NCBI GenBank assembly: GCA_963837035.1
Contig: CAWIMH010000035.1
Coordinates: forward strand, 341,770-405,769
Direction of reading: 5' to 3'
From: an uncultured Pseudomonadota bacterium
GTDB lineage: Bacteria > Desulfobacterota > Binatia > Binatales > Binataceae
DNA: 64,000 nucleotides
The position numbers and the translations under genes were made by a program. The notes beneath the pieces were generated by a model. It was not told the origin of the DNA and did no database searches. It worked only from the letters and a program-made list of their open reading frames with translations. Positions 1-64,000 of this stretch are shown here, piece by piece; positions within the stretch are counted from its first letter, which is position 1; the number at the start of each line of letters is the position of its first letter.

Positions 1-668
1 CGACTTCACGTACCAGCCATGGCCAAGGCCGTAGGAAATGAGCGGCTGAAACTGCAGTTGGCTTTGAGGAGTCGCCACAGAATTCGTATATGCGAACGAG
101 ATGGGGTTCTGGAACAAAAAACCTACCATCAGGTGGGGGATGCCCCGGTAAGCGACGGCGGCTGCGGGTCCGGCTTGCCAGGCGTGCTTGCCCGCCTCGG
201 GAACTCTTCCAGTCGGGAATACAAACGTAGGCCCAATGCCCCAGCCAAACCCCGTCGTCTTCGGATCGGGCCAGTTGGAGACGAACAGATCGAGCAACTC
301 CATGTCGGTGAACTCGGTTATCGTTGAGCTACTACTCTGCGAAATAGCTAGGGTTTGTACCTTGAATGTTGGACGGATGATTTGCTTGAAGGGCAGGAAC
401 GAAAGTGGCTCCACCGGGAGCACCACCTTCAGGTTGACTTCGTTGGTTTGTGCGGGCGTTTTAAAATTCTCCGGCGTGTACTGATCCTGAAGTTTAAATT
501 GCGTCAGAATCGCGGTCGGATCGTCCACTTCCCGGGCCAACTGGTCTTCTTCGGTTTCGCTGACAACGGGATTGGCCACGAGGCCCTGGCCTCGCGCGCT
601 GTTCGTTAAAATCAGAAGGGCGAACACAGGTAGCGAGACCGCGAAGCATTTCGCGCTCAGCATTCGAA

Positions 669-1946
669 TTAAAATTTCCAGATAACATGCAGGGCCAGGA
701 AGTTAAGGTAATTCGTTGAGAAATGCCCCTGCAGTGTTCCAGCAAGCGGCCCGCGGCGATTACTAAACGGTCCCGGGCCCGCATCGAGGAATTCCCACGC
801 GGCGCCAGCCGTTACATTACGATTGACCTCATACTGGATGCCGGTGCCGTATCTCAGCTGGCGATCAAAAGGAAGGACGGCATTACGGTTCGCTTTGGAA
901 ACTGGCGAACTGTCATACGCAAATCCTGCCGACCACAGCCACTTCTCAGCTAACCGAAATTGCTGCCCAATCGCAATCTGCCAAGTGTTCGAAAAATGCA
1001 GATTTGCATCGACCGTGCGCTGAGTTTGCGCTGAGATTCCAACCGGGAACTCTCCGAACTCCGTCCAGTTTTGCCAGCCGACGTTACCCATCAGGCTGAA
1101 GTTGGGTAGGACCTCGTAGACCGCGCTCGCCATCACCTGCTGGGGTTCCGTTAGAGGGACATTAAATTGTGCCCCGCCGATTCGTTTGCTGATCGCGCCG
1201 AGGCCCGGACCGAGATGGGTGAGATGCGGTTTGAACCCAAACTTGTAATACTCGGGTGACTGGTAGGTGAGCCCAATGCGTAGTTTCGGAATCGGCCTGA
1301 GCAATATGCCGGCCCTGCCACCGAACGCTTCGTCCCACGACTCGAGCGAGTAGCCACCATCCCCCAGGCGCGGAAGAGCGTTATTAACCTTTGATTGAAA
1401 CGTCAAGCGTCCGACCGCAAAGCTGAAACCCGCGCCCACTGATAGCCAGTCGTTTACCTCAAAAGCAATTGAGGGGGCGATCTTGCCAGTGAAAAGTGCT
1501 GCGCGGGTTATGTAATAGCGTCCGACCCATTCTTTGCCGTAGTTTCCGGCAAGACCGTAATCTGAATAGAGCGCCACGCCGAGCCACAGCCGCTCGGAAA
1601 ATTTGTGGGCATAGAAGAACGCCCCTATGGGCATAAACACCCCGGCGTTGCCGCCGCCACTGCCCTTGGTTGTCGTTTGTGGGGCGACGTTGAAGTTAAC
1701 CGAGGGCAGGAGTGCACCTGAGGCCCACATCAGTTGCGAGCGATCGAGCAGTGTCATGCCGGCGGGATTGGCAGCCGCAGTCGATGCATCCGCGGCCATT
1801 GCGGCTCGTCCCGCGCTCGCGGTCCCAAGATCAGGCGCACCCGTTTCGTAAAGCTCGAGGGCGGCGCCTCGCGCGGGCGTAACGAATGCCACGAGGACCA
1901 GTGCTGCGAGACACGTAGCTTGGTGAATTTTAGATGCTAGGCGCAT
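669..1946 (-). CDS. FadL/TodX-family outer-membrane transporter for hydrophobic compounds (long-chain fatty acid transport protein-like)
   Basis: 474-aa ORF. The likely true start is the internal Met (MRLASK...), which is followed by a hydrophobic signal peptide ending ARG-AA. The protein is Gly/aromatic-rich in a beta-barrel-like pattern with a C-terminal aromatic residue, typical of the FadL/TodX family. Family assignment is from recall of sequence character; no search was run. Confidence 0.65.
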   Translation of the reverse strand: MRLASKIHQATCLAALVLVAFVTPARGAALELYETGAPDLGTASAGRAAMAADASTAAANPAGMTLLDRSQLMWASGALLPSVNFNVAPQTTTKGSGGGNAGVFMPIGAFFYAHKFSERLWLGVALYSDYGLAGNYGKEWVGRYYITRAALFTGKIAPSIAFEVNDWLSVGAGFSFAVGRLTFQSKVNNALPRLGDGGYSLESWDEAFGGRAGILLRPIPKLRIGLTYQSPEYYKFGFKPHLTHLGPGLGAISKRIGGAQFNVPLTEPQQVMASAVYEVLPNFSLMGNVGWQNWTEFGEFPVGISAQTQRTVDANLHFSNTWQIAIGQQFRLAEKWLWSAGFAYDSSPVSKANRNAVLPFDRQLRYGTGIQYEVNRNVTAGAAWEFLDAGPGPFSNRRGPLAGTLQGHFSTNYLNFLALHVIWKF

Positions 1947-2171
1947 GGTTGCTCCAATTGCTCTGGAAAACGTTAGCGCCGATCCTGCTCCCGTGTCGCC
2001 GATCAATGGACGCACTGCGAACGCCGCGACCATCGCCGCCAGCAGTGCACTGTATCGGTGCGGCGCAAAATGCCGATGGATCGCCGTGCGCATTTCTTCC
2101 AGAGGGTATCTTCGTTTCAGTGCCCGCTGTTTGACTTCCGATTTAGCCTGGTCCCGGATTGGTCGTCGAGC

Positions 2172-3035
2172 TCAGTCACCGAAAAGATTCCCTTTGATGA
2201 GTTTCGGGATAACCGGCGTGATTGCGAATTGCAGATTCCATTTCTGGCCGAACACGTCAGGATGAACCGGCATGTACTGTCCCTGGACCTGCAGTTTCAC
2301 GGGTAGGGGGCCAATTTTTATCACCTTGCTGACATTCAGACCGACTGGAAAAGTGATCATGTTGGCGCTTTTATTCGCGTACCAGTTGACAAGGATATTC
2401 GGGGAGGTTCCGATTCCCCATCCGTCACCGGGGAGGTAGACGAAGAAGTACTGAATGTTCATCTGGCTTGTGGTCTGCGAGCCAGGCCCACCGACCGAGA
2501 ACCACTGCTGTGGGAATACGCCTCCCAGCCATTTTTCGCCCAAATAGCCAAGCACTCCTCCCGGACCTATTTGCCACTTGTTCTGGCCCAAACGTGAATT
2601 GCTTGCAGTGGGAAAGATGAAACTGGGTCCGGCTCCCAGCAGCCAAGGGCCTGATAGCTTCGGACTTGGTGAGATCAGCGTTGCGAGGATAGTGTCCCCA
2701 AATCCGGTGACGCGATGAAGATTGCCGCTCTTGTTCACGTACGGTGTCGAATTCATCACTTGGAAGACGGGACGAGTGATCAGATTCCAATCGTCGGTCA
2801 ACGCAAGAGGCAGAACGGGCTGAAACTGGAGGTTAACAACATTGCGCTCCGGTTTATCGAGCCAATAGGTATTTTCCTGAAGTTGGAGCGCCCAGATGCT
2901 CGAAATCGGGTTCGAGAGTTCCTTATTGACCTCGTCAAGCGATTTGCCGTCGGCCGTCTGCGCCGCGGCACGGGTGACCATGAGGAGGCCAAACACTCCG
3001 ATCAGGGTAATCATCCGTGCGTATCGGTGATTCAT
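2172..3035 (-). CDS. secreted outer-membrane beta-barrel-like protein of unknown function (possibly MetA-pathway/transporter-like OMP)
   Basis: 287-aa ORF with an N-terminal signal peptide (MNHRYARMITLIGVFGLLMVTRAAAQ). It has alternating hydrophobic, Gly-rich strands and a C-terminal aromatic (F-G-D). It lies on the same strand as, and adjacent to, the FadL-like gene. Confidence 0.4.
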   Translation of the reverse strand: MNHRYARMITLIGVFGLLMVTRAAAQTADGKSLDEVNKELSNPISSIWALQLQENTYWLDKPERNVVNLQFQPVLPLALTDDWNLITRPVFQVMNSTPYVNKSGNLHRVTGFGDTILATLISPSPKLSGPWLLGAGPSFIFPTASNSRLGQNKWQIGPGGVLGYLGEKWLGGVFPQQWFSVGGPGSQTTSQMNIQYFFVYLPGDGWGIGTSPNILVNWYANKSANMITFPVGLNVSKVIKIGPLPVKLQVQGQYMPVHPDVFGQKWNLQFAITPVIPKLIKGNLFGD

Positions 3036-3174
3036 GAAACCCGCTCTGAAAATCGCACGCGGACATCGTCACTCCGCCGACGCAAACCGCTGACCGCCAA
3101 CTGCGTTGCGTTCAACAACCTCAAGCCATTGACTCGATGCCATAGTGCGAACAGGCCAACAGTGGGAAACCCGA

Positions 3175-4200: not shown

Positions 4201-4212
4201 AGCAACGTCTCC

Positions 4213-10237: not shown

Positions 10238-11675
10238 ATGATGTCCACGGCCCCGCATTCCGCGGGCCAATCCCGGCCTGTTGCTGGGTATTGCCAACTG
10301 GCCGGGTACACGCATTCTCTGATGCGACCAGCAACAGCTGCAAAACTGACCCCACCACTTCTCCGTGCTCGAAGCTTGCGTGGAATCCGTCCACGGCGCG
10401 AAATTGAGCGCTTCGAATTGCTGTTGGACGAATTGTCGGCGGTGATGACCCGGACTCCTGCCGATGCGAGTCGACGGCGAAATCGAAACCTGGCTGGGCA
10501 AGATTTGCCAGGCCTTGGGGTTGGATCGCAGCGGCATCTATGAGCGTGATTCGCCGCTCGATCCCGTGCGCACTACGCATACCTGGAAGCGGCCAAATAT
10601 TCCTCCATTTCCTCGGGATTTCGATCCGGAGAAGTATCTAAAGACGACTACCGACTGGGTTATGGCGGGTAATCAGATTGTGTTCTCGTCGCCGAGCGGA
10701 ATTCCGGCCGAGCTGGCAGGATGCAAGACGCTTCGTCGAGCGATATCGGCCCCAAGGCTTCCGCCGTCATTCCGATGTGGGCCGGAAATCGAGTGATCGG
10801 CGCGGCGAGCTTTGGCAAGTTCCGCGCAGCGCGGGAATGGCCGCCAAAACTCCTCGAACAACTCACTCTCGCGGTCAGGCTCTTCGGCAGCGCGATTGAA
10901 CGCAAGCAGGCAGAGGCGGAGCGCCGCGCAACTCTTGCGCAGCTGCGGACCGCGTCGCGTCGCAACATGATGAGCGAACTCGTCGCCTCACTTTCACATG
11001 AAATCAACCAGCCTCTGGGTGCGATCCTGAGCAACCTGGGAGGTCTCGCGCGGTTGCTCTCGCGGAAAAATCCGGAACCCGCGATGGCCCTTGCTGCGGT
11101 CAACAACGCGATTGAGGATACCAAACGGGCTGCTGAAATCATTCGACGAATCCGTTTCATGTTCAAGGCTCATCCTGAACACAAAACAGCAGTCAGTATT
11201 GGCGCGTTGGCTGACGAAGTGGTGAACTTGATCGCTAGCGAGGCAGCGCTCCGTAAAGTTGAAGTGCTCCTGGAAGTTTCGCCCGCCGTCAAGCGCGTAA
11301 TCGGAGATCGCATTCAGCTGCAGCAATGCTTACTGAATCTGCTCATGAATGGCTTTCGACGCGATCACCGAGAGCAAGTCCGACCAGCGCGAGATAACGA
11401 TCAAAATCGCCCCGGAGAAGCCCGGATGGGTCGGCTTCAGCGTGAGCGATACCGGTGGTGGCATCGACCCTTCGGTCGCCGACCGACTATTCGAACCGTT
11501 TGTTACAACCAAAAGCAATGGTATGGGATTGGGCTTGCTCGTGACCCGATCGATCGTCGAGAATCACGGCGGCAAGATCTGGGCGACGCCGAATCCCGAT
11601 GGCGGAACCACGTTCACCTTCACGCTTCCTTTGGTGCAAAGAAAGCAAGCCAGCGCATCGAAGCGCGGCAATTGA
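10238..11675 (+). pseudogene. sensor histidine kinase (GAF-like, HisKA, HATPase_c) interrupted by at least 3 frameshifts
   Basis: Three overlapping ORFs in different frames read as one protein: an N-terminal region, a GAF-like region (IPMWAGNRVIGAASFGKF), HisKA (LSHEINQPL), and HATPase_c split at LLNLLMNG|AFDAITES. The HATPase_c split is explained by one extra g (aatggcttt versus expected aatgctttc). Confidence 0.6.
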
Positions 11676-11686: not shown

Positions 11687-12330
11687 TTAATTTGACCCGC
11701 CTTGAGCGAATCGCGTGGGCGTGGAATTCTCAAGGATTCCAGACATGCGGACGAGACCGGCGAGCGAGTCGGCCTTCATTTTGATCATTACGCGTTCGCG
11801 ATGTGCCTTAACCGTACGCTCCGTGGTTCCCAACTCGGCTCCCACCTGCTTGTTCAACAGACCCCTCGTGATTAGAGCGAAGACTTCGCGTTCGCGAGGG
11901 GTAAGCGCATCCAAGCGACTTTCGAGCTCGATCCGCTGGGCATGCTCGGCACGCCGCTTACGCGATTAGTTCGGCGCCACGAATTATCGAACTCACGAAA
12001 GCTTCTTCGTCGAGCGGCTTTTCAAGAAAATCCACCGCGCCCTTTCTCATCGCATGCATTCCGAGCGACAGATCGCCGTGGCCGCTGATGAACACGATTG
12101 ATGCGAATGGAACCGTGCGGTACAGCTTCGCCTGAAGCTGCAACCCGTTCATTCTCGGCAGAAAATTGTCCACCACGATACAATCAAAGGCGCTTGCGTC
12201 AGTGACATTGAGAAATTCTTCAGCAGAGTCTATGTGGGGCGACCTGAAAGCCTGCAGCACCGAGCTGGAAGACCAACGCTTGCGCGCAACCGCTCGTCGT
12301 CTTCAACGAGCGCCACCTTGATGGCCTCGT
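11687..12330 (-). pseudogene. FixJ/NarL-type response regulator (receiver plus LuxR-type HTH) with 2 frameshifts
   Basis: The receiver N-terminus (IKVALVEDDERLRASV), the receiver core (DCIVVDNFLPRMNGLQL...SGHGD...KGAVDFLEKP) and the LuxR HTH ([12 protein letters not shown]...[19 protein letters not shown]) lie in three different frames. Removing one base near 11958 restores ...[27 protein letters not shown]. Confidence 0.6.
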
Positions 12331-12840
12331 TGGTCGCGCGAGCGTTAGCATCCTGGACGATTCTTTTTCCCGCCGCGTCGAAATCGAACAGGTGTGTTTG
12401 CAGTGACGCATCGGCACCGCCCCCCGAGACATTCGCCGCTGCGAGAGTTGGCAAAACTATAGCCATCGCTCACGGAATCGAGCAAATGGACCTTGGTTCT
12501 CTGCGGCACAAATTTGGACTCCGGTACAAAGGCTCGCACATAGGATGTCGGCATATCGTGGCCTGATTGCATGCTTGGCGCGATGGGACAGATCTCGATA
12601 CTTCTTCGCTGTGACTGTTATACCAGTGGATTTCGAAAATCATTTTTCAAGAGCTGACCGTTGAGCAAGAAGAAAAGGCCCCGGAGCGAGCAGCCGACCT
12701 CCAGTGGAAACAGACGGAAACCGGAGCTGATGCAACGGCCCGGGTGCTACGACAGGCGCATCCTGAACTCCGGATCCTCGCTTGGCTGTTCCCCGTAGCG
12801 ATGCTCGATCATCCTGGCCGTCGCACTCTCGGGACGATCG

Positions 12841-15108
12841 ATGCGTGAGCCCATTCGTCCCGTAATTGCTTCGAAACAATCCCCCGTCCTTAGAGCGAAG
12901 TTCGTGGGATCCGCTGACTGCGCGACCTGTCACGAGCGCGAGAATTCCCTATGGCGTGGCTCGCATCATCAATTGGCGATGCAACCTGCTGCGAATTCCA
13001 CGGTCTTGGGCGATTTCAACAACGCGAGCTTCAGCAACGATGGGATCACTTCAACCTTTTTTCGAAGGGACTCCAAGTTCATGGTCCGCACCGACGGTCC
13101 CGACGGAGCCCTTCAGGGATTACGAAATCAAGTACACGTTTGGCGTCTCACCACTGCAGCAATATCTGATCGCCATGCCGGGCGGACGCTTGCAGGCGCT
13201 AGGAATCGCATGGGACAGCCGCCGGCGCGAGCACGGTGGTCAGCGTTGGTTCTTTCTCTATCCAGGCCAGAGAATCTCGTTTTTACATCCGTTGCACTGG
13301 ACCGGTATCGATCAGACCTGGAACTTCATGTGTGCGGACTGCCATTCGACCAACGTGCGCAAGAACTACGAACCGCGGACGCGTACTTATGCCACCAGCT
13401 ATGCCGAGATCGACGTAGCCTGCGAGGCTTGTCACGGTCCCGGATCGAATCACGACTCGTGGGCGCGGAAGCAAGGCGATTGGCGAAACTTTCGAGATCC
13501 AACCACGGACTGACTATCGCGCTTGACGAACGCAACGGAGTGTCGTGGCCGGTCGACTCCGCCGGCAACACCGTCCACCGTAGCAGGCCGCGCGAATCTG
13601 AACGGGAAATCCAGATGTGCGCGCGATGCCATTCGCGTCGCGGTGAGATTTACGAAGAATACGTCCACGGCCAACCTGTCGGCGACGACTATCGCGTCGC
13701 GCTGCTCGATCAAGACCTCTATTTTCCTGACGGCCAGATCAAGGGAGAAGTTTATGAATACGGCTCATTCGTCCAGAGCAGGATGTTCCATGCTGGGGTA
13801 ACCTGCAGCGATTGCCACGAACCACATAGCCTCAAACTCCGAGCCGATGGCAATAATGTCTGTCTGCAATGCCATTCCGCTCCAAAGTACGATTCAGCGA
13901 AGCATCACTTCCACCAAAAGGGGATCGCCCGGCGCGCAATGCGTCGAATGTCATATGCCGACGCGGACCTACATGGTCATTGATGCGCGACATGATCACA
14001 GCCTCCGCATTCCTCGTCCCGACCTGTCAGTGAAGCTCGGTACGCCCAACGCGTGCACCAATTGCCACAAGGATAAGTCCGCCCAATGGGCCTCGGATTC
14101 CGTGGACAAATGGTACGGGGGCGTACCAGTCGGCTTTCAGCATTTCGCTGTGGCGCTTGACTCGGGAATCCAGCAGGCGCCGGGTGCCCGGCAATCGCTC
14201 ACCGACCTCCTCGCCGATCGCGATCAGCCTGCAATCGCCCGCGCCACCGCCCTTTCAATGCTCGCCGCCTACGCTCCTTATCCGGCCGATGCTACCGTTC
14301 GCGCCGGAATCACGGACGCTTCGCCACTCGTTAGACGTGCCGCCGCTCGAGCGCTTTCGAACTCCGACCTCGCCACCGGCGCATCGATTCTGGCGCCGCT
14401 TCTGAGCGATCCATGCGCTCGGTTCGAATAGAACTTGCCGAGGTGCTCGCCGGCGTGTCTGCGGACATGCTCCCCACCAACGTCGCACAGTCGTTGGATC
14501 GCGCTACAGATGAGTACATCGCCGCTCAGGAATTGAACACCGATCGACCCGAAGCACATATGAATCTGGGGTTGCTCTACGCGCGGGAAAAGCACCTAGA
14601 CCAGGCCGAGGCGGAGCTCAAAAGCGCGTTGTCACTCGACCCAGCTTTTGCACCCGCGGCGGTCAACCTCGCCGACCTTTATCGCGCGCAGAACCGGGAT
14701 GCTGAAGGTGAACAGATCCTCGATGATGCTATCAATCGTTCGCCCAACGACGGGTCACTGCAACACGCGCTCGGTCTGTTGATGGTGCGCCAGAAGCAGG
14801 GCCGAAAAGCTTTAGCTCTATTCGCTGCCGCCGCACAACTCGATCCCGCGAACGCGAGATACGCATATGTATACGCAGTCGCTCTGAATGACACCGGCCA
14901 GACCAGCACTGCAATTGAAACACTCGAGCGCAATCTCAAACTGCATCCTTATGATCGCGATTCACTCACCGCACTGGTTAGCCTTTGCGATCGGGTTGGC
15001 AAATCACTGGAGGCGCTCAGCTATGCCCAACGCCTCTATGAACTTGATCCGGAGGACTTGCAAGTGCGGCAGATGCTCAAAGCGCTGAACGGCCAGATTC
15101 ACAACTGA
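12841..15108 (+). pseudogene. multiheme cytochrome c domain fused to C-terminal TPR repeats, at least 4 frameshifts
   Basis: Several CxxCH heme motifs are present (CATCH, CADCH, CEACH, CARCH, CSDCH, CLQCH, CVECH, CTNCH). They are spread over 3 frames (ORFs 12841-13983, 12866-13513, 13847-14431). These are followed by TPR repeats in ORF 14413-15108. The architecture matches the cytochrome-c-family-plus-TPR proteins common in Acidobacteria and Deltaproteobacteria. Confidence 0.55.
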
Positions 15109-21233: not shown

Positions 21234-21342
21234 AATCGTATCCTAGCAAGTCCTGACTCGACGCGTCCGCATGCTGGCGTGCTTATGTGGTTTGATAGCA
21301 GTGAACAGAGCGTGGTACCTTGCGGTCTATCCGCTCTCATTG

Positions 21343-22812
21343 ATGGAGACACGCATGGCGGCAAGTACGTCAAGCAGCGGTTCGCTTTCGAAATCGGCAC
21401 TGGTGCGTGCGCGGCTGAAGCATCCGGTGATCGATTCGGACGGCCATACGGTCGAGTTTCAGCCCGCGCTGCGCGATTATATTCGGCAGGTCGCCGGGCC
21501 AGATCTGGCCGGACGCTACCGGACTCGACGGCGCCAACTGGTACCGGATGAGTTGGGATCAGCGGCGCGCGGAGCGGCCGCTGCGCCCGCCCTGGTGGGC
21601 GCTGCCGACGAAGAACACGCTCGACCGCGCCACCGCCACCTTTCCGAAACTCCTGCACGAGCGCCTCGACCAGACCGGAATCGACTTCGCCGTGCTCTAT
21701 CCGACGGCCGGCCTGGGCGCGCCGCATATCCGCGAGGACGAGTTGCGGCGGGCCACCTGCCGCGCCTTCAACACTTCCACGCCGATATCTTCCGCGAATA
21801 TTCTGACCGGCTGACGCCGGCCGCGGTCATCCCGATGCATACGCCGCAGGAGGCCATCGAAGAACTCGAATATCGCGGTGAAGACGCTCGGGCTCAAGGT
21901 CATCATGATGGCGGGGCACGTGCGCCGTCCGGTTCCCGCCGTCGCCGCGGAGCATGCCGCATCCAACTCGCTATGCCTACTGGCTCGACCTGTTCGCGCT
22001 CGACAGCGAATACGACTACGACCCGGTGTGGGCCAAATGTATCGAGCTCGGCGTCGCGCCAAGTTTCCATTCGTCGGGCATGGGCTGGGGCAGCCGTACT
22101 TCGATTTCGAACTACATGTTCAATCACATCGGCCATTTCGCCTCGGCCGGTGAGGCGCTCTGCAAGGCGATGTTTTTCGGCGGCGTCACGCGGCGCTTTC
22201 CGCAACTCCGATGCGCTTTTCTGGAATGCGGGGTCGGATGGGCGGCCAGTCTCTATCGCCGACATGATTGGCCATTGGCAAAAACGCAACGGCAAGGCGA
22301 TGGAGAACTACAATCCCGCCAATCTCGACCGCAAGCTGTTCCAGGATCTTGCGCGCCGTTACGGCGGCAAGCTGGTCACCGACAAGCTCGACGGCCATGG
22401 CGAGGGCTGGGGCATCGGCGGCACCGACGAGGACCCGAACGCGCTCGACGACTGGTCGCGATGCGGAATCGAAAAGGCCGAGGATATCCGCGACTTGTTC
22501 GTGCCCAACTTCTACTTCGGATGCGAGGCCGACGATCCGATCAACGCCATGGCGTTCGACACGCGCAAGCTTCCGTTCGGCGCGAAGCTCAATGCCATCT
22601 TCAGTTCCGATATCGGCCATTGGGACGTGCCCGATATGACCGAGGTGACCGAGGAAGCATACGAGATGGTCGAGCACGGACTTATCAGCGAAGATGACTT
22701 CCGCGATTTCGTCTTCGCAAATCCCGCCCGTCTCTGGACGAGCATGAATCCCGACTTCTTCATCGGTACCGTGGTCGAAGGGGAGGTGAAGAGTCTTCTC
22801 GAGGGCCGCTGA
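21343..22812 (+). pseudogene. amidohydrolase-2 family protein (metal-dependent hydrolase) with at least 4 frameshifts
   Basis: The N-terminal part (VIDSDGHTVEF) and the C-terminal part (GSDIGHWDVPDMTEVTEEAYEMVEHGLISEDDFRDFVFANPARLW) are in one frame. Middle segments are in ORFs 21548-21814, 21878-22153 and 21954-22697 in other frames, and together they reconstruct one continuous amidohydrolase. Confidence 0.5.
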
Positions 22813-31236: not shown

Positions 31237-31751
31237 TGTATCTTCCTTTTGCGGAGGGACTGCTTAAATAGGCCGAACTCGAGACGTTCGAGATCCGGAT
31301 TTATTGGCTGCGATACCGCGCCGGCGGGCATCGTCTACGATTTGTTTTGAGTTCCCTGCCACCAATAGGGGGAATCCGAAAGCGCCTGGGCCTTTCGTCG
31401 TTTCGATACTGGCCGCTTCTTCGTAACCGTCAGGTGTCAGATGTATCTCGGCGTCGTTTGTGTCGACGTCCCGCGGCGAGAACACCAGCGCCAGGTCACG
31501 TTTGTGGAGGCGATGGGGCTGCCCTCGAAACGATAGAGATTGATGTTCGCGTAGCGTGCGGTCGTGCTCTTGAAATACCAAGTCGAGTGGCCGGCCAGGC
31601 TGCGGGCCGAGGCAGGCCAAAGAACTCGGCTTTCACCTGCCAATAGAATAGAGGGTAGGGCTGAGAGTCGAGCGCGGCGCGCAGCATCCACTCTTGCAAA
31701 GTCGACATTTTGCCCCCCACTCGTCGATTATAAACATATGACCGCATCATT

Positions 31752-33604: not shown

Positions 33605-33960
33605 TCAAGGCCAGCAGTCAATTCCGGCCTGAAGGAAGCTTTGCTTGAGGTGGCTCCCGAGAAGAACGATCCAGACCGCGTTAGTTCGTACCGCCTCGGT
33701 GCCTGGGCTCGAACGCACCGCGGAAAAGTATTGGATAACTACAAATTAGAGCGCAAGAAGGACGAACACGCCGGATTCGCGACCTGGCAGGTAATCAGAA
33801 TCGCAACTGTCACAAAGGAAGGATGAAATGACCGAAGAACTCGAGCAAATCGAACACACTCACGATGTAGGTATCTCGTACAACCCTGAGAGCCGCAAAA
33901 TCAAGGGGATCACAGGGCGCGGAAGAGGCCGTCGACGACACGCTAAGAGCGATCGCGCCG

Positions 33961-37582: not shown

Positions 37583-37951
37583 ATGAGTCTTTTTTCTCTC
37601 GATATAGAACGAGCGCCCGACTGGCATTTCATCGGCGCCGAGATCGTCGCCCCGACCGCTGGCCAGGTGATGGTAACCTCCCCAGGTTTGATCATGGCCT
37701 CGTCGATCGGAATCTTGGCCGCCGCGCGCCTGGCGGGAGACGACAGCGTACCCACCTTCGAGCTCGTCCATCGCGATGCCGCTAACAGCGTCGATATCGA
37801 TACCACATACGCTGATGCTGCTACGGCCGCCGCCGGCAGTTGGATGAGGATCTTCCTCATCAAATCGAAGGACCTGATCGTATTGCGCGCGAAGACCGCG
37901 GGGACGGTATTGAAAATTTATCAGGCCGAACTTTTTCTTTGGAGAATCTGA
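37583..37951 (+). CDS. hypothetical phage-region protein
   Basis: 122-aa ORF directly after the tape measure gene. It is possibly a distal tail component (position-based guess). Confidence 0.3.
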   Translation: MSLFSLDIERAPDWHFIGAEIVAPTAGQVMVTSPGLIMASSIGILAAARLAGDDSVPTFELVHRDAANSVDIDTTYADAATAAAGSWMRIFLIKSKDLIVLRAKTAGTVLKIYQAELFLWRI

Positions 37952-38578
37952 TGGACCTTACTCAATTCACGGACATCCTCGACGCCGCGGAACTCGATCC
38001 GCGGCCGCGCTGGACGCAAACCGTCCAAGCCATCCTCGACCGGGAATTTGCCCACGTCCCAGCCGATCTCGCGACGGCGTTCGCCCAATCGCGCCTGGCT
38101 GCCCGCCTCACGCCTTCGCACCGCCCTCGAGCAAGGCCGTATCGCGGATGGCGAGAAATACCTGGGCGACTTCGCGCTCGATCTGCGTCGGCTCGTCCAG
38201 GCTGAGCGCCAGCCCCCGTATGGACGATTGGTCCCGGTCTCGGCTGAGAGCCAACTTGAGAAGTTCAAAGAAGTGCTCTACCGCCATGCCTGGCGTGGGC
38301 CCGACCTCTCTGAGTTGCGCTCGATGATTCCTGACAACACCAAGATCGCCGGCATCACGTTCTGGGCGATCACGCTCGAGGGCGGCCGCACGATCACGCG
38401 CGACCAGGTCCGCCAAAACTCAAAGCCAATCTCGTGGTCGAACAAGCAGGGCTCATGGGAAAGTCAGTTCGTCAGCGACGCCACAATCCGCGAGCTTGAA
38501 ACCGCCGCCACGAGAGTTCCGACCCCTGTCGGAAGCGATTCCAGAAATTTGGACTACCCCAACGGCGTCAGGCCGTAA
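37951..38578 (+). pseudogene. hypothetical phage-region protein, one frameshift
   Basis: ORFs 37840/37951 and 38048-38578 join across a frame change near 38100. Confidence 0.3.
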
Positions 38579-39423: not shown

Positions 39424-39807
39424 ATGCTACCGACCACCACAAAACCGGCAAACCGCAAGCAGTATAAGCGCGATATGCAGGTGCGCGCGGCCATCCGCCG
39501 GCTACGCAGCCTCGCCGGTCATCTCGAGGATCGCCGCTACCTACCCTTGCTCAGATCTTTTTGCGAGATCAGCCTCTTGATCGAGAAGTCCTATTCGCAC
39601 TTGCGCGACGAGTCCCTGATCAGCGCCGAGACCGGCGAAATTCGGGGCAGCGTCGACGTGTTGAGAAGGCTCATGGACACCCAACGCGGCCTGGCCCGCG
39701 AGCTCGGCCTTTCCCCGACCATATCGGCGAACCTGTTCCCGAAGCTGACCAAGCCCACCATCGACCTGGAAGCGGTCCGTGCCGAGTACAACGACACGCA
39801 GGAATAA
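39424..39807 (+). CDS. phage terminase small subunit (P27-family-like)
   Basis: 127 aa lying immediately upstream of, and overlapping, the terminase large subunit. LRRLMDTQRGLARELGLSPTISANL resembles P27-family TerS. Confidence 0.5.
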   Translation: MLPTTTKPANRKQYKRDMQVRAAIRRLRSLAGHLEDRRYLPLLRSFCEISLLIEKSYSHLRDESLISAETGEIRGSVDVLRRLMDTQRGLARELGLSPTISANLFPKLTKPTIDLEAVRAEYNDTQE

Positions 39808-41305
39808 CGCGCTCGTCGCTTTCGCCGAGAACGCGCTCGGCGTCAACCTGAACCACCATCAGCGGCGGATGCTCGAGGCCATCATGCGAGCGAGACGCAC
39901 CGCCATCGCGTCCTGCCATGCCACGGGGAAGAGCTTCGTCCTGGCATGTGCCGCCCTCGGCTTTGCCGCCCTTCATCGCGATAGCCGGGTCCTCATCGTC
40001 ACCCCCGGGTGGTTAATGAATCGTGCGGTGATCTGGACCGAGATTCACTCGCTGCTCGCGCGCGCGAAGCACCGCTTGCCCATCGTTTCGTCGACGCAAA
40101 CGGAAATCCGGTTGGGTCCGAAGAATCTCGTCATCGGATTATCGGCGGCGGACGCCGGCCGACTGCAGGGTCATCACAGCGAACATCTTTTGCTGATCGT
40201 CGACGAAACCGCAGCGCTCGACCCGACCTTCTGGCCCGCGATCGAAGGCGTGCTCGCCTCGGGCAATTCCCGCTTGCTCATAGCCGGCAACCCGACCACG
40301 ACCACGGGCGTCTTTTACGATGCCTTCGCCCGCAACCGATCCGCGTGGGAATGCCTGCAAACCGGCGCGTTCGATACCGAAAATTTGGAAGGCGTCACGC
40401 TCGAGCAGTTGCTCGCGATGACCGAGGACGGCTCGACACGAACCCGCGGCCGTACCTGGTGACGCGCCGGTGGGTCCGCGAGCGCTATGCGGAATGGTTC
40501 AACGGGTCACCCGAGAATTCGCCGCTGTGGCAGTCCCGGGTGCTCGGCCAGTTTCCGACGTCGTCGAGCAACGCCCTGGTACCGCTATCGGCTCTCGAGC
40601 ATGCTCGGCGGCCGGCCGAGGACCACGCCGAGCGTATCGTCATCGGCGTCGATCCGGCCGGACCTGGCCGGGACCTCACCGCCTGTGTAGCCATCGCCGG
40701 CGGCGCCATCGTCGAGATAGCGACGTTTTCCGATGCGGATGCACGTGGGCCGGTGGTCGCCTTCATCAACCGCCACCGCGACCGCCTGCGCCTCGTCCAG
40801 GTCGATTCTGGGGGCATCGGCTGGTACTTGGCCGAACACTTGCGGACCCTCGGCATCGGGACCCAGGGACTCAATGCTGCGAGTTCGGCCACGGACAAGG
40901 AGCGCTATACCAACTTGAAGGCCGAGCGATATTTCGCCCTAAGGCAACGCTTCCAGCAAGGCGAAATCTCGGGGCTCGACGACTCGACCCTCGGCGAACT
41001 CGCGAGCATTTCCTACCTCGTTGACCCGCACGGAAAGATCCAGATTCGAAGACAAAGCTTCCGTTCGATCCGCGCTCGGTCATAGTCCTGACAGGTCCGA
41101 GGCCCTCATGCTGGCTGCCGGCGAGTCCTACGAGCCCATCGCGTACCGCGCAGCGCCGGACTTTCGACCGAGCATCTCCGGATGGTCATCGTCACCTCGA
41201 GGCCGCGACCTCTCGCCGTCGGCGATCGAAGCCGGCCAGCCCAAGGTACGGCAACTTGGCGACCTCGCGCGATTCAAAAGCCGGCGAGACTGGCGAGGGT
41301 TCTGA
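39779..41305 (+). pseudogene. phage terminase large subunit (ATPase plus nuclease) with at least 2 frameshifts
   Basis: It has Walker A CHATGKS and Walker B LLIVDETA. The nuclease domain shows IGVDPAGPGRDLTAC. The C-terminal SPDRSEALMLA motif is in a third frame (ORF 41021-41305). Frame changes are near 40440 and 41030. Confidence 0.65.
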
Positions 41306-43524: not shown

Positions 43525-43611
43525 TGGTGCCGAGGGGCGGGACTTGAACCCGCATGTGGTTTCCCACGGTGGATTTTGAGTCCACTGCGTCTGCCGTTTC
43601 GCCACCTCGGC
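43525..43611 (-). tRNA. tRNA-Leu (anticodon CAA), class II with a long variable arm; CCA encoded
   Basis: On the minus strand the gene reads gccgaggtggcgaaacggcagacgcagtggaCTCAAAAtccaccgtgggaaaccacatgcgggttcaagtcccgcccctcggcacca. The anticodon loop is ctCAAaa and the T-loop is TTCAAGT. The G-run at 43533-43536 has one more G than canonical T-stem/acceptor geometry allows. Confidence 0.8.
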
Positions 43612-43708
43612 ATGCTCTAGAGTCAAGAAGATACCGTACTTCTACGCAGGGATGAAGCCGATCGGGCGCAGTTGAGTTCGTTGTCCAGCAGGGAGGGGGC
43701 TCGCGCTT

Positions 43709-44652
43709 TTGACCAGAGCGAGTAGTCTGGCGATTATTCTGACCGTTGCCGGTGCGATGGGTTTTGCAGGCGCTCTGATCGCAAAGCACTGGCTTCCACA
43801 CCGGGACCACGGGCCGTCTACTATATCGGCTTCGCCGCGCAGCTCAGCCGCGCCGCCATCGTCGATCGCCACTTCCTCTGCTGCCCCTTTCGAAGTCGGC
43901 GTCAATTATAGACTGGTCGTTGCGGCCAACAGGGCACGCGAATTCCTAGTCTATGTTCCTTCAAGTCTCAATCGCCACGTAACGGCTCCACTGGTTATCA
44001 TGCTCCATGGGCAGGGAATGTCGAACGGTGAGGTGATCGGCCGACCCGCTGGGACCGGCTGGCCGATGTCAACGGATTCATCGCCGCCTTCCCGCAAGGC
44101 TACAAGGGGAACTGGGATGACGGACATTTCTCGCGCAGCGAAGTGGACGTCGAATTCATCGGCGCCATGATCGACGCCATCTCCAAAGCGGCCCAGATCG
44201 ACCCTCGAAGAATTTTTGTAACCGGTTATTCGATGGGCGCGTCGATGGCCTACCGTCTCGGAGCCGAACTTTCGGACAGAATTGCCGCCATCGCACCCGA
44301 TTCCGGGCAGCTATGGCTGCCCCCTCAGCATCTCAAGAAGCCGGTTTCGCTGATGTACATGATCGGGACTGCTGACTACGTAAACCCAATTGGGGGAGGC
44401 AATGGACGCCCCCCGGCAGAGAAAACCTTGAGTTTGTGGCGTACGATGCTGCGATGCCCCGGCGCTAGCCGTGCGGTGGAGGCATTTGCGGGACCCGGAG
44501 TTAAGGCAATAGCCTGGGCCCCGTGCGACGGAGACACCGCCGTTGCCCTGTACCAGATCGACAGGCTAGGTCACTATTGGGCCGATGCCATCGGATGGTT
44601 TCGACGCCACCGCGGCGATCTGGTGGTTCTTTTCGCATCATCCAAAAGCTGA
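43709..44652 (+). pseudogene. secreted PHB-depolymerase-type esterase (LpqC-like alpha/beta hydrolase), one frameshift
   Basis: It has an N-terminal TM/signal segment, LVIMLHGQG and GYSMGASMA (GxSxG). The frame changes near 44040, between GEVIGR and the DVNGFIAAFPQGYKGNWDDGHF segment. Confidence 0.55.
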
Positions 44653-47610: not shown

Positions 47611-47767
47611 TGCAACGCTTTAAAACTGAGCCACTTTACCGGCGTAAAAGTGAGCCACCCTGGGTTGGTTCTTTCCTCAGTCCCTTTTTGAGATTTTAAC
47701 CGTCTGGTCCTTTCCTCCGTGCGCGTTAGGTGTGGCGCGCCAGCGCGTACCTTGCGCGCAAGCGATA

Positions 47768-48565
47768 CTAATGCGCTTCACTATCGTCGGCATGTGTATC
47801 CTTCTTGGCGCCGCCGGCGGCTCTGATTGCTCGCTGGCTGCGAAAGGAATCGCCGCGAGTTGTCAGGATATGGGCGTGATGGCTGAGGCGATCGAGCAAC
47901 GCCGTTGTGAGCTTTTCATCGCCGAACACCTTGACCCACTCCGAGAACGCCAGATTGGTGGTGATGATGGTCGAGCGGCGTTCGTAGCGCTGGGCAAGCA
48001 GATTGAAGAGCAGCTCGCCGCCGGTGCGCTCGAAAGGCACGAACCCCAGTTCATCCACGATTAACAGCGCGACTTTCTGATACCGCTGTTGCAAGGCGGT
48101 CAGCCGCCGCTCGTCGCGCGCCTCAACCAGACTCTGCACCAGATCCGCTGCGCGGGCGAAGTGAACTCGCAGCCGCCGGCGCGTGGCTTCCACTCCGAGC
48201 GCGATCGCGAGATGAGTCTTGCCGGTGCCGATCGGACCGGCCAGGATTGCGTCCTCGGCGCGTCCGATGAACTCGCCGCTCGCCAGCTCCATGAGCTTTG
48301 GCCGTGACACGCCCTTGAGCACCGCCCAGTCGAGCTGGTCGAAGGTCTTGATATCGGGAAAGCGCGCTTCGCGCAGCAGGCGGCGCGCGGTGCTTTGATG
48401 CCGATTGGTGATCTCGGCTTCTAGCAGCTCGCGCAGCAGGTCTTCGTAAGCCCAGCCACCGTCGCGGGCGCGCCGGCAGAGCCCCGGATAATCCCGCACC
48501 ACCGCCGCGAGCTTGAGTTCGTGGCAGTACTCCTGGATGACCGCCTCGCAGGCCGCGTTACTCAT
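47768..48565 (-). CDS. istB: IS21-family helper ATPase IstB
   Basis: Walker A GPIGTGKTHLA, Walker B LLIVDELG, and the IstB C-terminal motifs are present. The start at MSNAAC overlaps the istA end. Confidence 0.8.
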   Translation of the reverse strand: MSNAACEAVIQEYCHELKLAAVVRDYPGLCRRARDGGWAYEDLLRELLEAEITNRHQSTARRLLREARFPDIKTFDQLDWAVLKGVSRPKLMELASGEFIGRAEDAILAGPIGTGKTHLAIALGVEATRRRLRVHFARAADLVQSLVEARDERRLTALQQRYQKVALLIVDELGFVPFERTGGELLFNLLAQRYERRSTIITTNLAFSEWVKVFGDEKLTTALLDRLSHHAHILTTRGDSFRSQRAIRAAGGAKKDTHADDSEAH

Positions 48566-50038
48566 GGACGGCTCCTTCGGCGAGCAGCAGATGATCGTAA
48601 TCAGACGCGCGTCCGGCTTCGACCACGTAGGCGGCGAGCGCATCGGGAACCGCGACGTTCTCGAGCTTCGGTCCGGGAACGGGGAGATCGAGCACGTCGA
48701 TACGGTGCTGGTTGATCGCCGCTTCCAGCGCCAGGCGCACCCGATCTTCGCCGTGTTCGCAGACCACGCCGAGCAGCCGCGCCACCACTCGCGCTGCTTC
48801 CAATTCGCCGTGCGTGCCGCACAACAGTCTCCACAGTCCGCTCCACGGTGCGCCCAACTCCGCGATCAACTCCGGCGCCACTTGGCGCACCGCGTGCGGC
48901 TTGCGCGCCAGCTCGGGAAGATAATGACGATAGCGGACCTGGCGCGTTCCAAACCGCGCTCGCGGATGCGTCACGCTCTCGCCCATGCAGGTGATGCGGA
49001 CGTCGTCCACGCCGAGGTACGCGGTCGCATCAAGCCGCGCCCAGCGCGACGGCACCGAGTACCAGGCCCGTTCGATCCTGACCATCGCGCGCGAGCTGAT
49101 CTCGACCGGGATTGGCTTGCGCACCTCGAAGCTCGTAGCGGGTGCCGGCAGCAGTTGCACACGTTCCTCCGCCCACAGCTCACTGGCGGACCTTCCAGCA
49201 CGGTGCCGCGCGGGGAACGCGGCGTCGAGTTCGGCGAGCAGCTGGCGCGAGATTGCTTCCAGGCTGTCGCCGCGCGGAATCGGAGTGAGATGCTCAGCCG
49301 GATCGCCTTACCGCGGCTTTCCACTCCGCCCTTGTCGTGCCCTTCGCCGATGCGGGCGAAGTCCGGCTCGAACAGATAGTGGCTGACCAGCGCCAGGAAC
49401 CGGCCCGTGAGTTCGCGCCGCGCACCGACAATCTTGCGCACTGCGGCCGCGAGATTATCGTATACGCAGCGCCGCGCGACTCCGCCCAGGTGGGCAAACG
49501 CCCGCACGTGGCCGTCGAGAAAGGCGAGCTGATCGCAGCGATCGTAGAGCCAGGCGAACTCGCGGCCCGAGTACATCAGCCGCAACAGGAACTCCCAGGC
49601 TTTGCGCCGTTCGCCGCCGACTTCCACCACCACCTCGAAGAAATCGATCTGCGCTTCGCCCGGGCGATTAACCAGTGGCACGTAGACCTCGGCTCGTTGC
49701 CGCCGCCGCTCGCGCCAATAGTCACCCACCAATGTCCTGCCGACCTGATAGCCTTCCGCCTTGAGCTGACGATAAAGCCGCATCGCGGTAATCCGTTGCT
49801 TGCCGGTGGTCCGCGGCTCCCACTCCGCCACCAGCTCCTCCAGCCGCGGCTGCACCGCCTCCCATACCGGCCGCTCCCGCTGTCGCCGCGAACTTCTGAC
49901 CGGCTCGGGCTGATCGAGGTACTTGGCTACCGTGTTGCGGCTTAAGCCGAGTTCACGCGCCACGCGCCGGATGCTCCGTCCCTCGTTCAGCACCTTGTGT
50001 CGCAGTACATGCACTTGATCCATCTTCAGCATCCCCAT
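48558..50038 (-). pseudogene. istA: IS21-family transposase IstA, one frameshift (homopolymer cc to c near 49300)
   Basis: The N-terminal HTH and DDE region are in ORF 48971-50038 (HDKGGVES...). The C-terminal region is in ORF 48558-49160. Inserting one C restores ...RLSHLTPIPRGDSLEAISRQLLAELD.... Confidence 0.7.
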
Positions 50039-50123
50039 CCTCCGGCTTCCAGCCGGAGTCTACGGCTCGGGGTGGCTCACTTTTACAGCGGTAAATGGAT
50101 CAGTTCTTTAGCGGCATATCCAC

Positions 50124-51229: not shown

Positions 51230-52891
51230 ATGGGCACGAGCGGGAAGCCGAACAAAGCGGTGAAGCTCTATCGTTTCACTTTCGAAGTCCTCCTCGGGTT
51301 GGCGTCTATCTGTATAGTCGCGCTGGCGGCGGCACCAATCGCCTCCGCGGACCACCCGCCGATTGCTGTCACTGAAAGCGGACTCGTAATTGGCACCACG
51401 GCGAATGGCATAAACGAGTTTCTCGGCATCCCATACGCCGCGCCCCCGATGGGACCTCTGCGCTGGATGCCACCGAAGCCTTATGGGCTGTTTCACGGAT
51501 TTGTCCTCCAGGCGACTCAATTCGGTAGTGAGTGCACGCAACCTGGACCGTTTGGCAGCGAAAACTGCTTGTTCCTGAACGTCTATAGACCGCAGCCGCA
51601 GTTTGGCGGCGGCCCGCCGCGGAGTCTGCCGGTGATGGTCTGGATTCATGGCGGCAGCCTTACGAGTGGAGGCGGTGACTTTTATGATCCGACGCCACTG
51701 GTACAAAAAGGAGTGATCGTCGTCACCATCAATTACCGCCTGGGATATCTTGGCTTCTTCGCCCAATCGGCGCTTGACGCTGAGGGCCATCTCGCCGGTA
51801 ACTACGGGTTGATGGATCAGCAATTCGCGCTCCGTTGGGTTCAGAAAAATATCGTGGGCTTTGGCGGCGATCCGAATCGAGTAACGGTATTCGGTCAATC
51901 CGCAGGCGGATATAGCATCTATGCCCAGCTCGCTTCTCCCACCGCGTCGCATCTGTTTCGCGGTGCGATAGTGGAGAGCGGATCGTTTGATCAATTTCAG
52001 GACTACTTTGATTTCATTGTTCCGCTGGCAACGGGCGAATCCACCGGTACCGCATTCGTACCAGCGGGGGACAGCGTAGCTGCAGGCTTCGGATGTTCAG
52101 GCAGTCCCGGGGAAACCTCCAAGTGTCTGCGCGATTTGTCCGCGCCGGCGCTGGTAGCGATACAAGCCGGCATTCTGTATCCGTTCGTGGATGGAACACT
52201 GCTCACTCAGACACCCGGCGAGGCGTTTGCCAGCGGTCAATTCAACCGCGTGCCGGTGATCCACGGCACCAATCATGACGAATGGCGTCTGTAGGTGGCT
52301 GGAGAATACGATTTTGGGGTCGGACCGCTGACTGACGACGAATATCCGGCTGCGGTGTCAGCACTGTTTTTCGGGCAACCCGAGAGCTTCATACAATCGT
52401 TGATCAATACCGAATATCCGTTGAGCGACTACCCGCCGCCTCCGGGTGTCGTGAGCGCGCCACTGGCCCTAGGCGCACTCGGCACGGACGTCATTTTCGC
52501 GTGTACCGCGCGCAATGCAGATCTGTTGTTGTCGCAGTACGTGCCGACCTATGCGTATGAATTCAATGATGAAAATGCGCCGCCGGCGCAGTCCTCTGTG
52601 CCAGGGTTAACGTTTCCGCTTGGCGCGTATCACACGGCTGAATTTCCATACCTTTTCAATTTTCCCTTAGATGTTTTATCTCCAGCGCAAATCGAGCTCT
52701 CGGATACGATGATCGGATATTGGACACAGTTCGCGAAAACCGGGAATCCTAACTCGGCGGGTGCGACTAGGTGGTCCAAGTACAATGCGGGGGGCTCGCT
52801 CGAATCGCTAGTGCCCCCGACGCCAATGCCGGAGTCGGATGCGAGTTTTGACAAGGATCACAAGTGTTCGGGCTTCTGGAACACGTTCTAA
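51230..52891 (+). pseudogene. carboxylesterase type B (para-nitrobenzyl-esterase-like) interrupted by an in-frame TAG at 52292-52294
   Basis: It has a signal peptide, an oxyanion-hole HGGS motif, and the active-site motif GQSAGG. The two ORFs 51230-52294 and 52295-52891 are in the same frame and separated only by TAG (...NHDEWRL*VAGEYDFGV...). Confidence 0.65.
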
Positions 52892-62619: not shown

Positions 62620-62645
62620 AATTCGTTGACGGAAACTGACTAGTC

Positions 62646-62684
62646 GTACGCGGCGCCCGCGGATTTGTCCGGGGCGCCGCGTAC
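62646..62684. terminator. bidirectional terminator hairpin between convergent genes (13-bp perfect stem GTACGCGGCGCCC, 13-nt loop)
   Basis: gtacgcggcgccc-gcggatttgtccg-gggcgccgcgtac lies between the Kelch stop (62619) and the phosphoketolase stop (62687). Confidence 0.55.
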
Positions 62685-62686
62685 GT

Positions 62687-64000
62687 TCAATACGGCCACC
62701 TCCAGTCGGTGATTTCGGGTTTGTCGATGCCGTTCGCGGTCGCGTAGTCAAGGTTCTCGCAAATCTGATCCTTGAGCCAATCCTTGAGGTGGGCGCCTTT
62801 CTCCTGCAGAGTCGCGACCCGGTCGATCACGTCGATCGCCAACGTGAAGCGGTCGGTCTGATTGTGGATCGCCAGTTGTAGTGGAGTGTTGATGCTGCCG
62901 AATTCCTTGTAGCCGCGTACATGCAGATTTTCATGATTGGCCCGGCGGTAGGCCAGCTTGTGAACCAGCCAAGGATAGCCATGAAAGTTGAAAATGACCG
63001 GCTTGTCGACGGTAAAGAGGCTATCGAAGTCGCGATCACTGAGACCGTGCGGATGCTCCGTGTCGGGCTGCATCTTGAAGAGGTCCACTACGTTGACGAA
63101 GCGAATCTTCAAAGTGGGAAAGCCTTCGCGAAGTAGGGCAACTGCAGCCAGCGCCTCTTGCGTAGCCACGTCTCCAGCACTGGCGACGACGACGTCGGGC
63201 GAAGCACCCTGATCGGTACTAGCCCAGGACCATAATCCGATTCCTTTGGTGCAATGTTTGACCGCCGAATCGATATCGAGGAACTGCAGGTGCGGCTGTT
63301 TATCGGCGACGATAATGTTGACGTAATCGGTGCTACGCAGGCAATGGTCGGCCACACTCAACAAGCAATTGGCGTCGGGGGGCAGATAGATGCGCGTGAC
63401 CATGGGGCTTTTATTCGTCACGACATCGATGAAGCCGGGGTCCTGATGTGTGAAGCCATTATGATCCTGACGCCAGACGGTGGAGCTGATGAGAATGTTG
63501 AGCGAGGAAATCGGAGCCCGCCAGGAGACCTCAGAGTGGGCTTTCTCGAGCCATTTCGCGTGCTGACCCACCATCGAGTCGATTATGTGGGCAAAAGCCT
63601 CGTAAGTGTTGAAGAAGACGTGCCGACCGGTAAGCAGATAGCCTTCCATCCAGCCCTCGAGCGTATGCTCGCTCAGCATCTCCATTACACGGCCATCGGG
63701 AGCGAGGTCGCCGCCGTCAGCATCTTCAGGCCGAAGCTCCGCAAGCCACGTCTTGGGGGTCGCCTCGTAGATGGCGTTCAGACGGTTGGAAGCGGTCTCG
63801 TCCGGACCGAAGACCCGGAAGTTGTCCATGTTCTCGCGCATTACATCGCGCAGAAACTGACCGAGGATGTAGGTATTCTGCCCCTCTGATTGACCGGGCC
63901 GATCGACGGCCGCGGCGTAGTCACGGAATTCCGGCAGGCGCAGCGGTTCGCGGAGCAGGCCGCCGTTCGCATGAGGATTTGCACTGATCCGCCGGTTGCC
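62687..64000 (-). CDS. xfp: phosphoketolase (xylulose-5-P/fructose-6-P phosphoketolase), C-terminal about 435 aa; the N-terminus lies beyond the window end
   Basis: Upstream of the annotated Met, the frame stays open to position 64000 and reads ...[66 protein letters not shown].... Within the window the C-terminal domain ends ...[14 protein letters not shown]. Confidence 0.8.

Follow-up and report, generated by a model that had tools for sequence, protein, structure and literature searches.

Clustered one-base frame breaks in a Binataceae contig point to errors of the assembly consensus rather than to gene decay

A 64,000-nt stretch of contig CAWIMH010000035.1 (positions 341,770 to 405,769 of the forward strand, GenBank assembly GCA_963837035.1), hereafter the window, comes from an uncultured soil bacterium assigned by GTDB to the Binataceae, and so many of its genes change reading frame midway that it raises a simple question, i.e., whether the organism or the assembly has broken them. 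The genes concerned include a histidine kinase (HK), a response regulator (RR) and a multihaem cytochrome that lie together, an amidohydrolase, and several genes of an element integrated at a tRNA-Leu gene. An earlier note on this DNA, made from the sequence alone, had weighed homopolymer-sensitive sequencing against real pseudogenization of accessory and phage DNA. The roughly 35 frame breaks are almost certainly consensus errors of the assembly and not mutations of the organism, since they are private to the window, nearly all 1 nt in size and cleanly restorable, and since they come with no nonsense load and leave the ratio of nonsynonymous to synonymous substitution rates (dN/dS) unchanged. 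Their origin is probably a consensus built from a mixed population of reads in a long-read metagenome-assembled genome (MAG).

The broken genes were detected by matching the translated open reading frames (ORFs) of relatives to the window, in which single relative genes were split across several frames; a three-frame reading added two shifts in a tape-measure-like gene and one each in a hypothetical gene, an esterase of the PHB-depolymerase type and IstA of an IS21-family insertion sequence (IS). GC3 (third-position GC content) frame plots and codon-usage scoring of ORFs were too noisy to place frameshifts, most so in the integrated element with its foreign composition. The earlier note had counted at least 14 frame-changed genes; the high density that it saw stands, at about 35 lesions, whereas 11 genes were confirmed, and of its two hypotheticals one was verified, at 38.1 kb. 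The lesions number seven in the primase, five in the amidohydrolase and four each in the HK, the RR, the cytochrome with its C-terminal TPR region and the integrase, followed by two each in the tape-measure-like gene and the terminase large subunit (TerL) and one each in the hypothetical, the PHB-type esterase and IstA. They comprise 21 single-base insertions, one 2-nt insertion and 13 single-base deletions, none of them exceeding 2 nt.

The clustering of these lesions, already noticed at first reading, is extreme: about 34 events fall in 15.5 kb vs. none in the other 28.5 kb of verified coding sequence (CDS) in the window (P = 3e-10 if the rate were uniform). Along the window, the breaks lie at 10.3-15.1, 21.4-22.3, 30-41.3, 43.7-44.1 and 49.3 kb, with clean sequence at 0-10.2, 15.1-17.4, 19.2-21.2 and 50-64 kb. 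The same tests show a single frame for every gene in 1-9.5 kb and 15.1-17.4 kb, for the genes at 50-64 kb and for the long ORFs, the latter including those of 881, 688, 571 and 532 amino acids (aa) whose intactness had been remarked on before. A detector of frame junctions found six in the first 20 kb of the window; in 12 syntenic relatives it found two over 242 kb, with none in the Illumina loci L001, L003 and L010.

Gene order over the first 17.6 kb of the window is kept in relatives, and the HK-RR-cytochrome locus is conserved and syntenic there, i.e., it is not accessory DNA. The syntenic loci found for the window protein at 8048-9445 belong only to uncultured Candidatus Binataceae MAGs (65-78% aa identity), mostly from "MFD" long-read bins and some from Illumina assemblies. 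DNA alignment of the three genes to relatives at 83-87% nucleotide identity revealed 13 frameshifting indels private to the window, the HK lesions being based on tblastn frames, junction scoring and DNA alignment to loci L099 and L100. The amidohydrolase was aligned to eight Illumina metagenome contigs (within L013-L026, up to 90.8% nucleotide identity). Across these four DNA-aligned genes the window carries 18 private frameshifting indels vs. none in L013-L026 (amidohydrolase) and L098-L101 (HK, RR and cytochrome), with a count of zero for the RR in L099-L101. Two control genes that adjoin the broken locus, one encoding a 191-aa protein and the other a sulfatase, show no private indels in the window when aligned to relatives in the same way.

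Intact homologues of the broken genes are numerous. For the cytochrome there are 8000+, the best of which matches at 83% aa identity over 100% of the restored protein, and the intact cytochrome-TPR proteins of the relatives are 812-851 aa long; the amidohydrolase (about 490 aa) is intact in dozens of metagenome contigs. With 11-12 frame corrections the restored HK, RR and cytochrome (about 1,400 aa) read without an internal stop, and they keep 8/8 CXXCH motifs in the cytochrome as well as the H, N and G boxes of the HK. The proteins of the broken genes have diverged no more than their intact neighbours, and for each of the four genes tested dN/dS falls within the range of intact orthologues or right at its margin. 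Measured between the window and its nearest relative, it is 0.200 for the cytochrome (0.197-0.236 among intact relatives) and 0.173 for the HK (0.184), and it is 0.324 for the RR vs. 0.26-0.31 among relatives and 0.06-0.11 for the amidohydrolase vs. 0.046-0.082. The amidohydrolase bears six private substitutions in 1.5 kb vs. five private indels, and its close relatives bear four to nine substitutions. With dN/dS unchanged and the HK-RR-cytochrome locus conserved in relatives, the idea of real pseudogenization of accessory and phage DNA finds no support.

What kind of error, then, produced the breaks? The earlier note had proposed systematic indel error with a homopolymer signature; error it is in kind, but the signature is a different one. 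The longest run with which an insertion is compatible measures 1 nt for ten of 19 insertions, 2 nt for seven, 3 nt for one and 4 nt for one, the same as for random insertion. Two of the 19 lie in runs of at least 3 nt, vs. 15.3% by chance in the analysed genes; across the seven genes analysed, none of 14 runs of at least 5 nt is affected, and one (possibly two adjacent) of 74 runs of at least 4 nt. The reading of the HK lesion as g to gg is not the best solution, as closer relatives read N-G-L-D-A-I at this point and the extra base stands in TT[T]C (inserted bases are given in square brackets). For IstA, a 1-nt deletion can be placed equally well at several sites, of which cc to c is one. Four initial protein-level placements in homopolymers (cytochrome 13113, GG to GGG; RR 12245, a C-run; RR 11965, A to AA; HK 11351, G to GG) were overturned by homologue scoring or by closer DNA relatives.

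The recurrent pattern is instead that two alternative bases stand adjacent where relatives have one, mostly at the third position of a codon and with the two bases synonymous. The insertions take the forms TA[T]C (three times), AA[T]C (twice), AC[T]C, TT[T]C, AT[T]C, GCG[A], GC[A]G, CG[A]G, CG[C]G and TC[T]A. Further allele pairs are seen against the relatives at RR 11965 ([A][T]CG vs. ACG or TCG), at cytochrome 13115 (A/G) and at HK 10746 (TA[T]C vs. TAC), and the cytochrome deletion at 14412 falls on the third position of a CCN codon. For a null, intact neighbouring genes were given 400 random insertions of one base and subjected to the same inference, which yielded a synonymous transition pair in a third-position slot in 22.75% of cases. 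Inference at the protein level gave such a pair for 11 of 19 insertions (P = 1e-3), and after refinement at the DNA level the figure was 12 of 21 (P = 7e-4). Third positions hold 11 of the 12 transition pairs (P = 5e-5 to 1e-3, varying with the null used).

Each of the five amidohydrolase indels sits at an alignment column in which the eight relatives vary (P = 0.006), and at 21525 and 22256 both alleles seen among the relatives stand next to each other in the window. Insertions of the same form occur in sibling long-read assemblies, as CC[C][G]GGC in L012, a nanopore MAG, and as CTC[G] in L098, in both cases at third positions with a C/G polymorphism; that these two assemblies were made by the pipeline that produced the window is an assumption. 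L098 (ENA contig_96040) also contains several genes called in two pieces, at 3220-4033 (DUF2950), 4729-5449 (RR) and 11620-12718 (SBP_bac_3). For its RR a check showed a private insertion of 1 nt, located at a third position that is polymorphic.

These observations suggest the following origin. The source would most probably be a long-read MAG, in some stretches of which heterogeneous reads may have been collapsed, whether from co-occurring strains or from related copies that were drawn in from the community. At sites where two bases compete, the consensus would keep both, giving a 1-nt insertion, or less often neither, giving a 1-nt deletion, and as the affected sites would mostly be synonymous third positions, the extra base would usually form a synonymous transition pair with its neighbour. 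Where the pile-up was homogeneous or deep, the sequence would stay clean, which would produce the clustering at the scale of genes. A minority of lesions are ordinary miscounts of run length, namely the G-run of the tRNA, the A-run of the tape-measure-like gene and two repeats of about 80 bp. Such a model would explain the 1-nt size, the bias to wobble sites, the synonymous pairs, the lack of a substitution load and the clustering, and a dependence of errors on local read heterogeneity or depth explains the clustering better than pseudogenization does.

Several points weigh against a mixed pile-up. Both the pile-up itself and the software step responsible are inferred rather than observed, and no description of a consensus that keeps both alleles was found in the literature. 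The third-position slot taken alone is not significant (17 of 21 vs. 2/3 expected, P = 0.12), so that the signal lies in the identity of the inserted base, and tied placements were counted in favour of the model, although the simulated null was counted likewise. Three or four insertions fit no synonymous pair (RR 12229, AG[A]C; the A4/G4 run of the cytochrome; the 2-nt insertion), and phasing was not possible for most deletions. A test of the amidohydrolase for a block mosaic between two clades of relatives gave no fewer runs than random, i.e., no switching of haplotypes in blocks; this fits mixing site by site, but equally an ordinary intermediate lineage. Finally, an element carried by only one strain should be homogeneous, yet no part of the window is more damaged than the integrated element, and thus the model needs related elements elsewhere in the community that supply reads.

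If the reads were merely few, i.e., one or two noisy reads with about one indel per 200-400 bp and no relation to polymorphism, a generic long-read consensus error would result, and the density inside the clusters (about two lesions per kb), the kilobase scale of the clustering, the restriction to 1-2 nt and the occasional frameshifts of the sibling long-read assemblies all agree with this. Frameshift errors are also commoner at low coverage and in soil data (PMC9262707, PMC13087279). However, random errors should ignore codon phase and allele identity, whereas 12 of the 21 inserted bases are synonymous transition partners (about 23% expected) and the amidohydrolase indels all sit at polymorphic columns; moreover, raw-read errors include mismatches, and yet no matching excess of private substitutions accompanies the indels (six in 1.5 kb). 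We regard this explanation as unlikely. A homopolymer-sensitive method, which miscounts run lengths and concentrates indels in runs of at least 3 nt, accounts for the G3/G4 difference at the tRNA-Leu, the T4/T6 and A3/A4 differences of the 80-bp repeats, the AAAA deletion of the tape-measure-like gene and the A4/G4 insertion of the cytochrome. It is nevertheless quite improbable as the general cause, given that 2 of 19 insertions lie in such runs (null 15%) and 10 of 19 in no run, that many inserted bases differ from both neighbours, and that runs of at least 5 nt are untouched. An error linked to base modification, in which a methylated motif such as GATC is miscalled with adjacent indels, came to mind from the GATC that adjoins three cytochrome junctions. 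GATC is over-represented in the whole window (389 vs. about 237 expected from base composition), and it lies within 10 nt of 8 of 29 events vs. 12% background (P = 0.02, uncorrected, with a range of 0.02-0.05), but this weak enrichment is lost on correction for the 11 motifs tried, and most events have no GATC nearby. CG, TCG, TCGA, CCGG and GCGC are not enriched, and the hypothesis explains neither the bias in codon phase nor why few of the 389 GATC sites are affected, so that we give it scarcely any credence.

Real pseudogenization, in which the HK-RR-cytochrome operon, the amidohydrolase, the element and the IS would be dead genes while selected genes stay intact, draws on the clustering of lesions by gene, several of them in mobile DNA, on one gene that is truly split by an IS21 element and on one plain nonsense codon in a carboxylesterase. 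Real bacterial pseudogenes have a deletion bias and a spread of indel sizes. The window shows the opposite, with an excess of insertions (22 vs. 13 deletions) and no indel above 2 nt, while dN/dS and the private substitution counts equal those of intact orthologues. Drift long enough for four to seven indels in a gene should also bring tens of neutral substitutions and some stops, which are not seen, there being no nonsense codon in the approximately 1,400 restored residues of HK, RR and cytochrome; the extra bases, furthermore, follow the allele-pair pattern of wobble sites, and a structurally incorrect tRNA is present as well. Decay of these genes is thus highly improbable. A last conceivable case is that the frameshifts are physically present and the genes are still expressed through recoding, i.e., ribosomal or transcriptional slippage at the doubled wobble positions. 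If true, this would explain how so many frame breaks can coexist with purifying selection that is unchanged and with a complete lack of nonsense codons, but we consider the chance of it vanishingly small.

The integrated element, which occupies 29737-43611 at tRNA-Leu(CAA), encodes an integrase, an HTH protein, a primase, a small terminase-like gene and TerL, and its integration at 29.7-43.6 kb is a real feature rather than an artefact. The frame changes of the integrase rest on homologues P0016-P0026 and L093, and those of the primase on homologues P0121-P0130, which are likewise labelled Binataceae; the homologues of TerL, integrase and primase were obtained through chimeric protein queries. 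Fifteen intact TerL homologues have lengths of 482-539 aa, while a scan of IMG/VR with a TerL fragment gave no relative. The tape-measure part of a chimeric protein query retrieved no homologues; the gene product has a weak PhageMin_Tail match, and the lesions are placed tentatively, from the three-frame reading. Candidate nonsense codons at 31081 in the integrase and at 32574 and 33602 in the primase were rejected, each being a pair of nearby opposite shifts.

The extra G that the earlier note saw in a G-run of the tRNA-Leu is real in the assembled sequence: ARAGORN and an alignment to Rfam, which displays an inserted c, agree on it, and the partial copy at 29737-29787 has GGG. The variable arm of the tRNA differs from that of the displaced copy by compensatory changes. 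Relatives of the element lie in other Binataceae-type contigs (L093, 2272-10745; L097, 333-9931) as compact versions of about 9-10 kb with the same core. No recognisable capsid genes were seen in these two relatives, which are reminiscent of phage satellites.

The PHB-type esterase (43676..44652) has a weak Abhydrolase_2 match. The IS21 element is identified by an IstB_IS21 match (E = 1.7e-72), by Mu-transpos_C_2 in IstA, and by terminal inverted repeats of 26 nt with 92% identity (47635-47660 and 50070-50095); a target-site duplication could not be defined from the element ends. That a cyclase-TPR gene had been split by the IS and not by an indel, as first read, holds, for its halves (50176-50916 and 46466-47635) flank the element, and the insertion is a real gene disruption rather than an artefact. 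The carboxylesterase (51194-52891) is of type B, well conserved and colinear with its homologues apart from the in-frame TAG. Pfam COesterase positions 3-316 match before the TAG and 382-488 after it, PDB homologues align straight through, and homologues have F, I or L in its place; the TAG may reflect a real allele or a substitution error.

The two repeats of about 80 bp do differ by T4/T6, A3/A4 and one substitution, as had been reported. They lie at 46294-46367 and 52969-53043, just downstream of two minus-strand genes (TPR and the 881-aa peptidase), and contain the hairpin TCTCGC TCATG GCGAGA; they resemble a shared terminator or a REP-like element and not the junction of a duplication. 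The 881-aa intact ORF itself (53109-55754, minus strand) has a pro-kumamolisin activation domain, a long Pro/Thr-rich linker and a C-terminal ASH-like domain, and an unrelated 978-aa protein of L093 matches it at 25% identity.

Elsewhere in the window, in an intergenic array at 18352-18504, a 17-nt unit (GCGGTGGTTTATGCCAT) is repeated perfectly, head to tail, about eight times. Inside the ORF at 3175-4212 (minus strand), positions 3734-4090 show a 51-nt period with 6-7 copies at 62-73% identity, i.e., a 17-residue protein repeat, and the relatives of this gene vary in that part. The metagenome loci around the amidohydrolase have no synteny with the window, and therefore they could not be used for its neighbouring genes. 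The features and their lesions are collected in the table.

Table. Broken genes and other features of the window, with the position and form of each lesion (inserted bases in square brackets)
Feature	Coordinates	Strand	Lesions and remarks
GAF/HisKA/HATPase histidine kinase (HK)	10289..11675	+	4 private 1-nt insertions: 10469 (GCG[A]), 10718 (GC[A]G), 10746 (TA[T]C), 11357 (TT[T]C)
REC-LuxR response regulator (RR)	11687..12400	-	4 private 1-nt insertions: 12360 (AA[T]C), 12284 (CG[C]G), 12229 (AG[A]C), 11965 ([A][T]CG)
Multihaem cytochrome, C-terminal TPR	12841..15108	+	insertion 13115 (C[A]GG); +2 nt near 13493; A4/G4-run insertion 13916-13924; 1-nt deletion 14412
Amidohydrolase	21300..22812	+	5 private 1-nt indels: insertions 21525 (AC[T]C), 21874 (TAT[C]), 21949 (GC[G]G), 22256 (TA[T]C); deletion after 21776
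Tyrosine integrase	30004..31263	-	4 frame changes: ~31114 (CG[A]G), ~31061 (deletion), ~30643 (TA[C]T), ~30415 (deletion)
Primase/helicase-like	32292..33826	+	7 frame changes: 32546 (AA[T]C), 32586 (TC[T]A), deletions ~32712, 32826, 33311, 33594, insertion ~33613
Tape-measure / minor-tail-like	35476..37579	+	two 1-nt deletions, near 36289 and near 36333 (second in A-run AAAA)
Hypothetical of element	37840..38578	+	one +1 frame change near 38100; single homologue (L093) split between frames 1 and 2
Terminase large subunit (TerL)	39779..41302	+	1-nt deletion near 40429; insertion 41046 (AT[T]C)
tRNA-Leu(CAA), element attachment site	43528..43611	-	extra base at junction of T stem and acceptor stem; GGGG at 43534-43537 (+ strand)
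PHB-depolymerase-type esterase	43676..44652	+	one 1-nt deletion near 44035; two overlapping ORFs in different frames
IS21-family element	47616..50095	-	IstA 48561-50059 with one 1-nt deletion near 49300; IstB 47771-48643 intact
In-frame TAG in carboxylesterase	52292..52294	+	only plain nonsense codon found in the window

The verdict is one of ordinary assembly error with an unusual and recognisable fingerprint, and its biological interest is low. The two-component system, the cytochrome, the amidohydrolase and the element genes are to be annotated as intact genes with sequence errors, and the broken genes are not to be counted as pseudogenes or taken as evidence of genome decay or of a dead prophage. 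There is also a warning in it, namely that an assembly may look homopolymer-noisy while its errors are doubled or dropped bases at strain-variable wobble sites, and clustered. If the signature is general, it can be recognised without reads and points to strain mixtures, for which homopolymer-aware polishing would be no fix, whereas strain-aware polishing or homology-guided frame correction would.

Among known systems, the indel-truncated ORFs of long-read assemblies and MAGs, as addressed by the IDEEL test and by proovframe, resemble the window in their single-base indels that are private to an assembly and in the full-length homologues of the genes concerned. Indels rank among the main causes of broken ORFs in nanopore metagenome assemblies, and this holds all the more for soil and for low depth (PMC9262707, PMC13087279); the truncation problem is cured by re-polishing (PMC9262707, PMC13087279, bioRxiv 10.1101/2021.08.23.457338). 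The textbook cause, however, is a genome-wide miscounting of homopolymers, whereas in the window runs are spared and the errors are found at variable wobble sites in a third of the CDS. The homopolymer errors of 454, Ion Torrent and nanopore R9 likewise consist of 1-nt indels with frameshifts and are matched by a few lesions of the window (the tRNA, the 80-bp repeats and the A-run of the tape-measure-like gene), but the window shows no enrichment by run length.

The pseudogenes of Mycobacterium leprae and Sodalis are similar to the window in having several frameshifts per gene among intact genes. These pseudogenes add stops, larger deletions and neutral substitutions, whereas the window shows an unchanged dN/dS, no stops in the restored genes and indels of 1-2 nt. 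Strain-oblivious assemblers collapse close strains, and the resulting single consensus corresponds to none of them (PMC8302730), which is the same condition that a consensus from mixed reads requires; that work describes mismatches and loss of identity, and the step from a single-nucleotide variant to a 1-nt indel is what we infer here.

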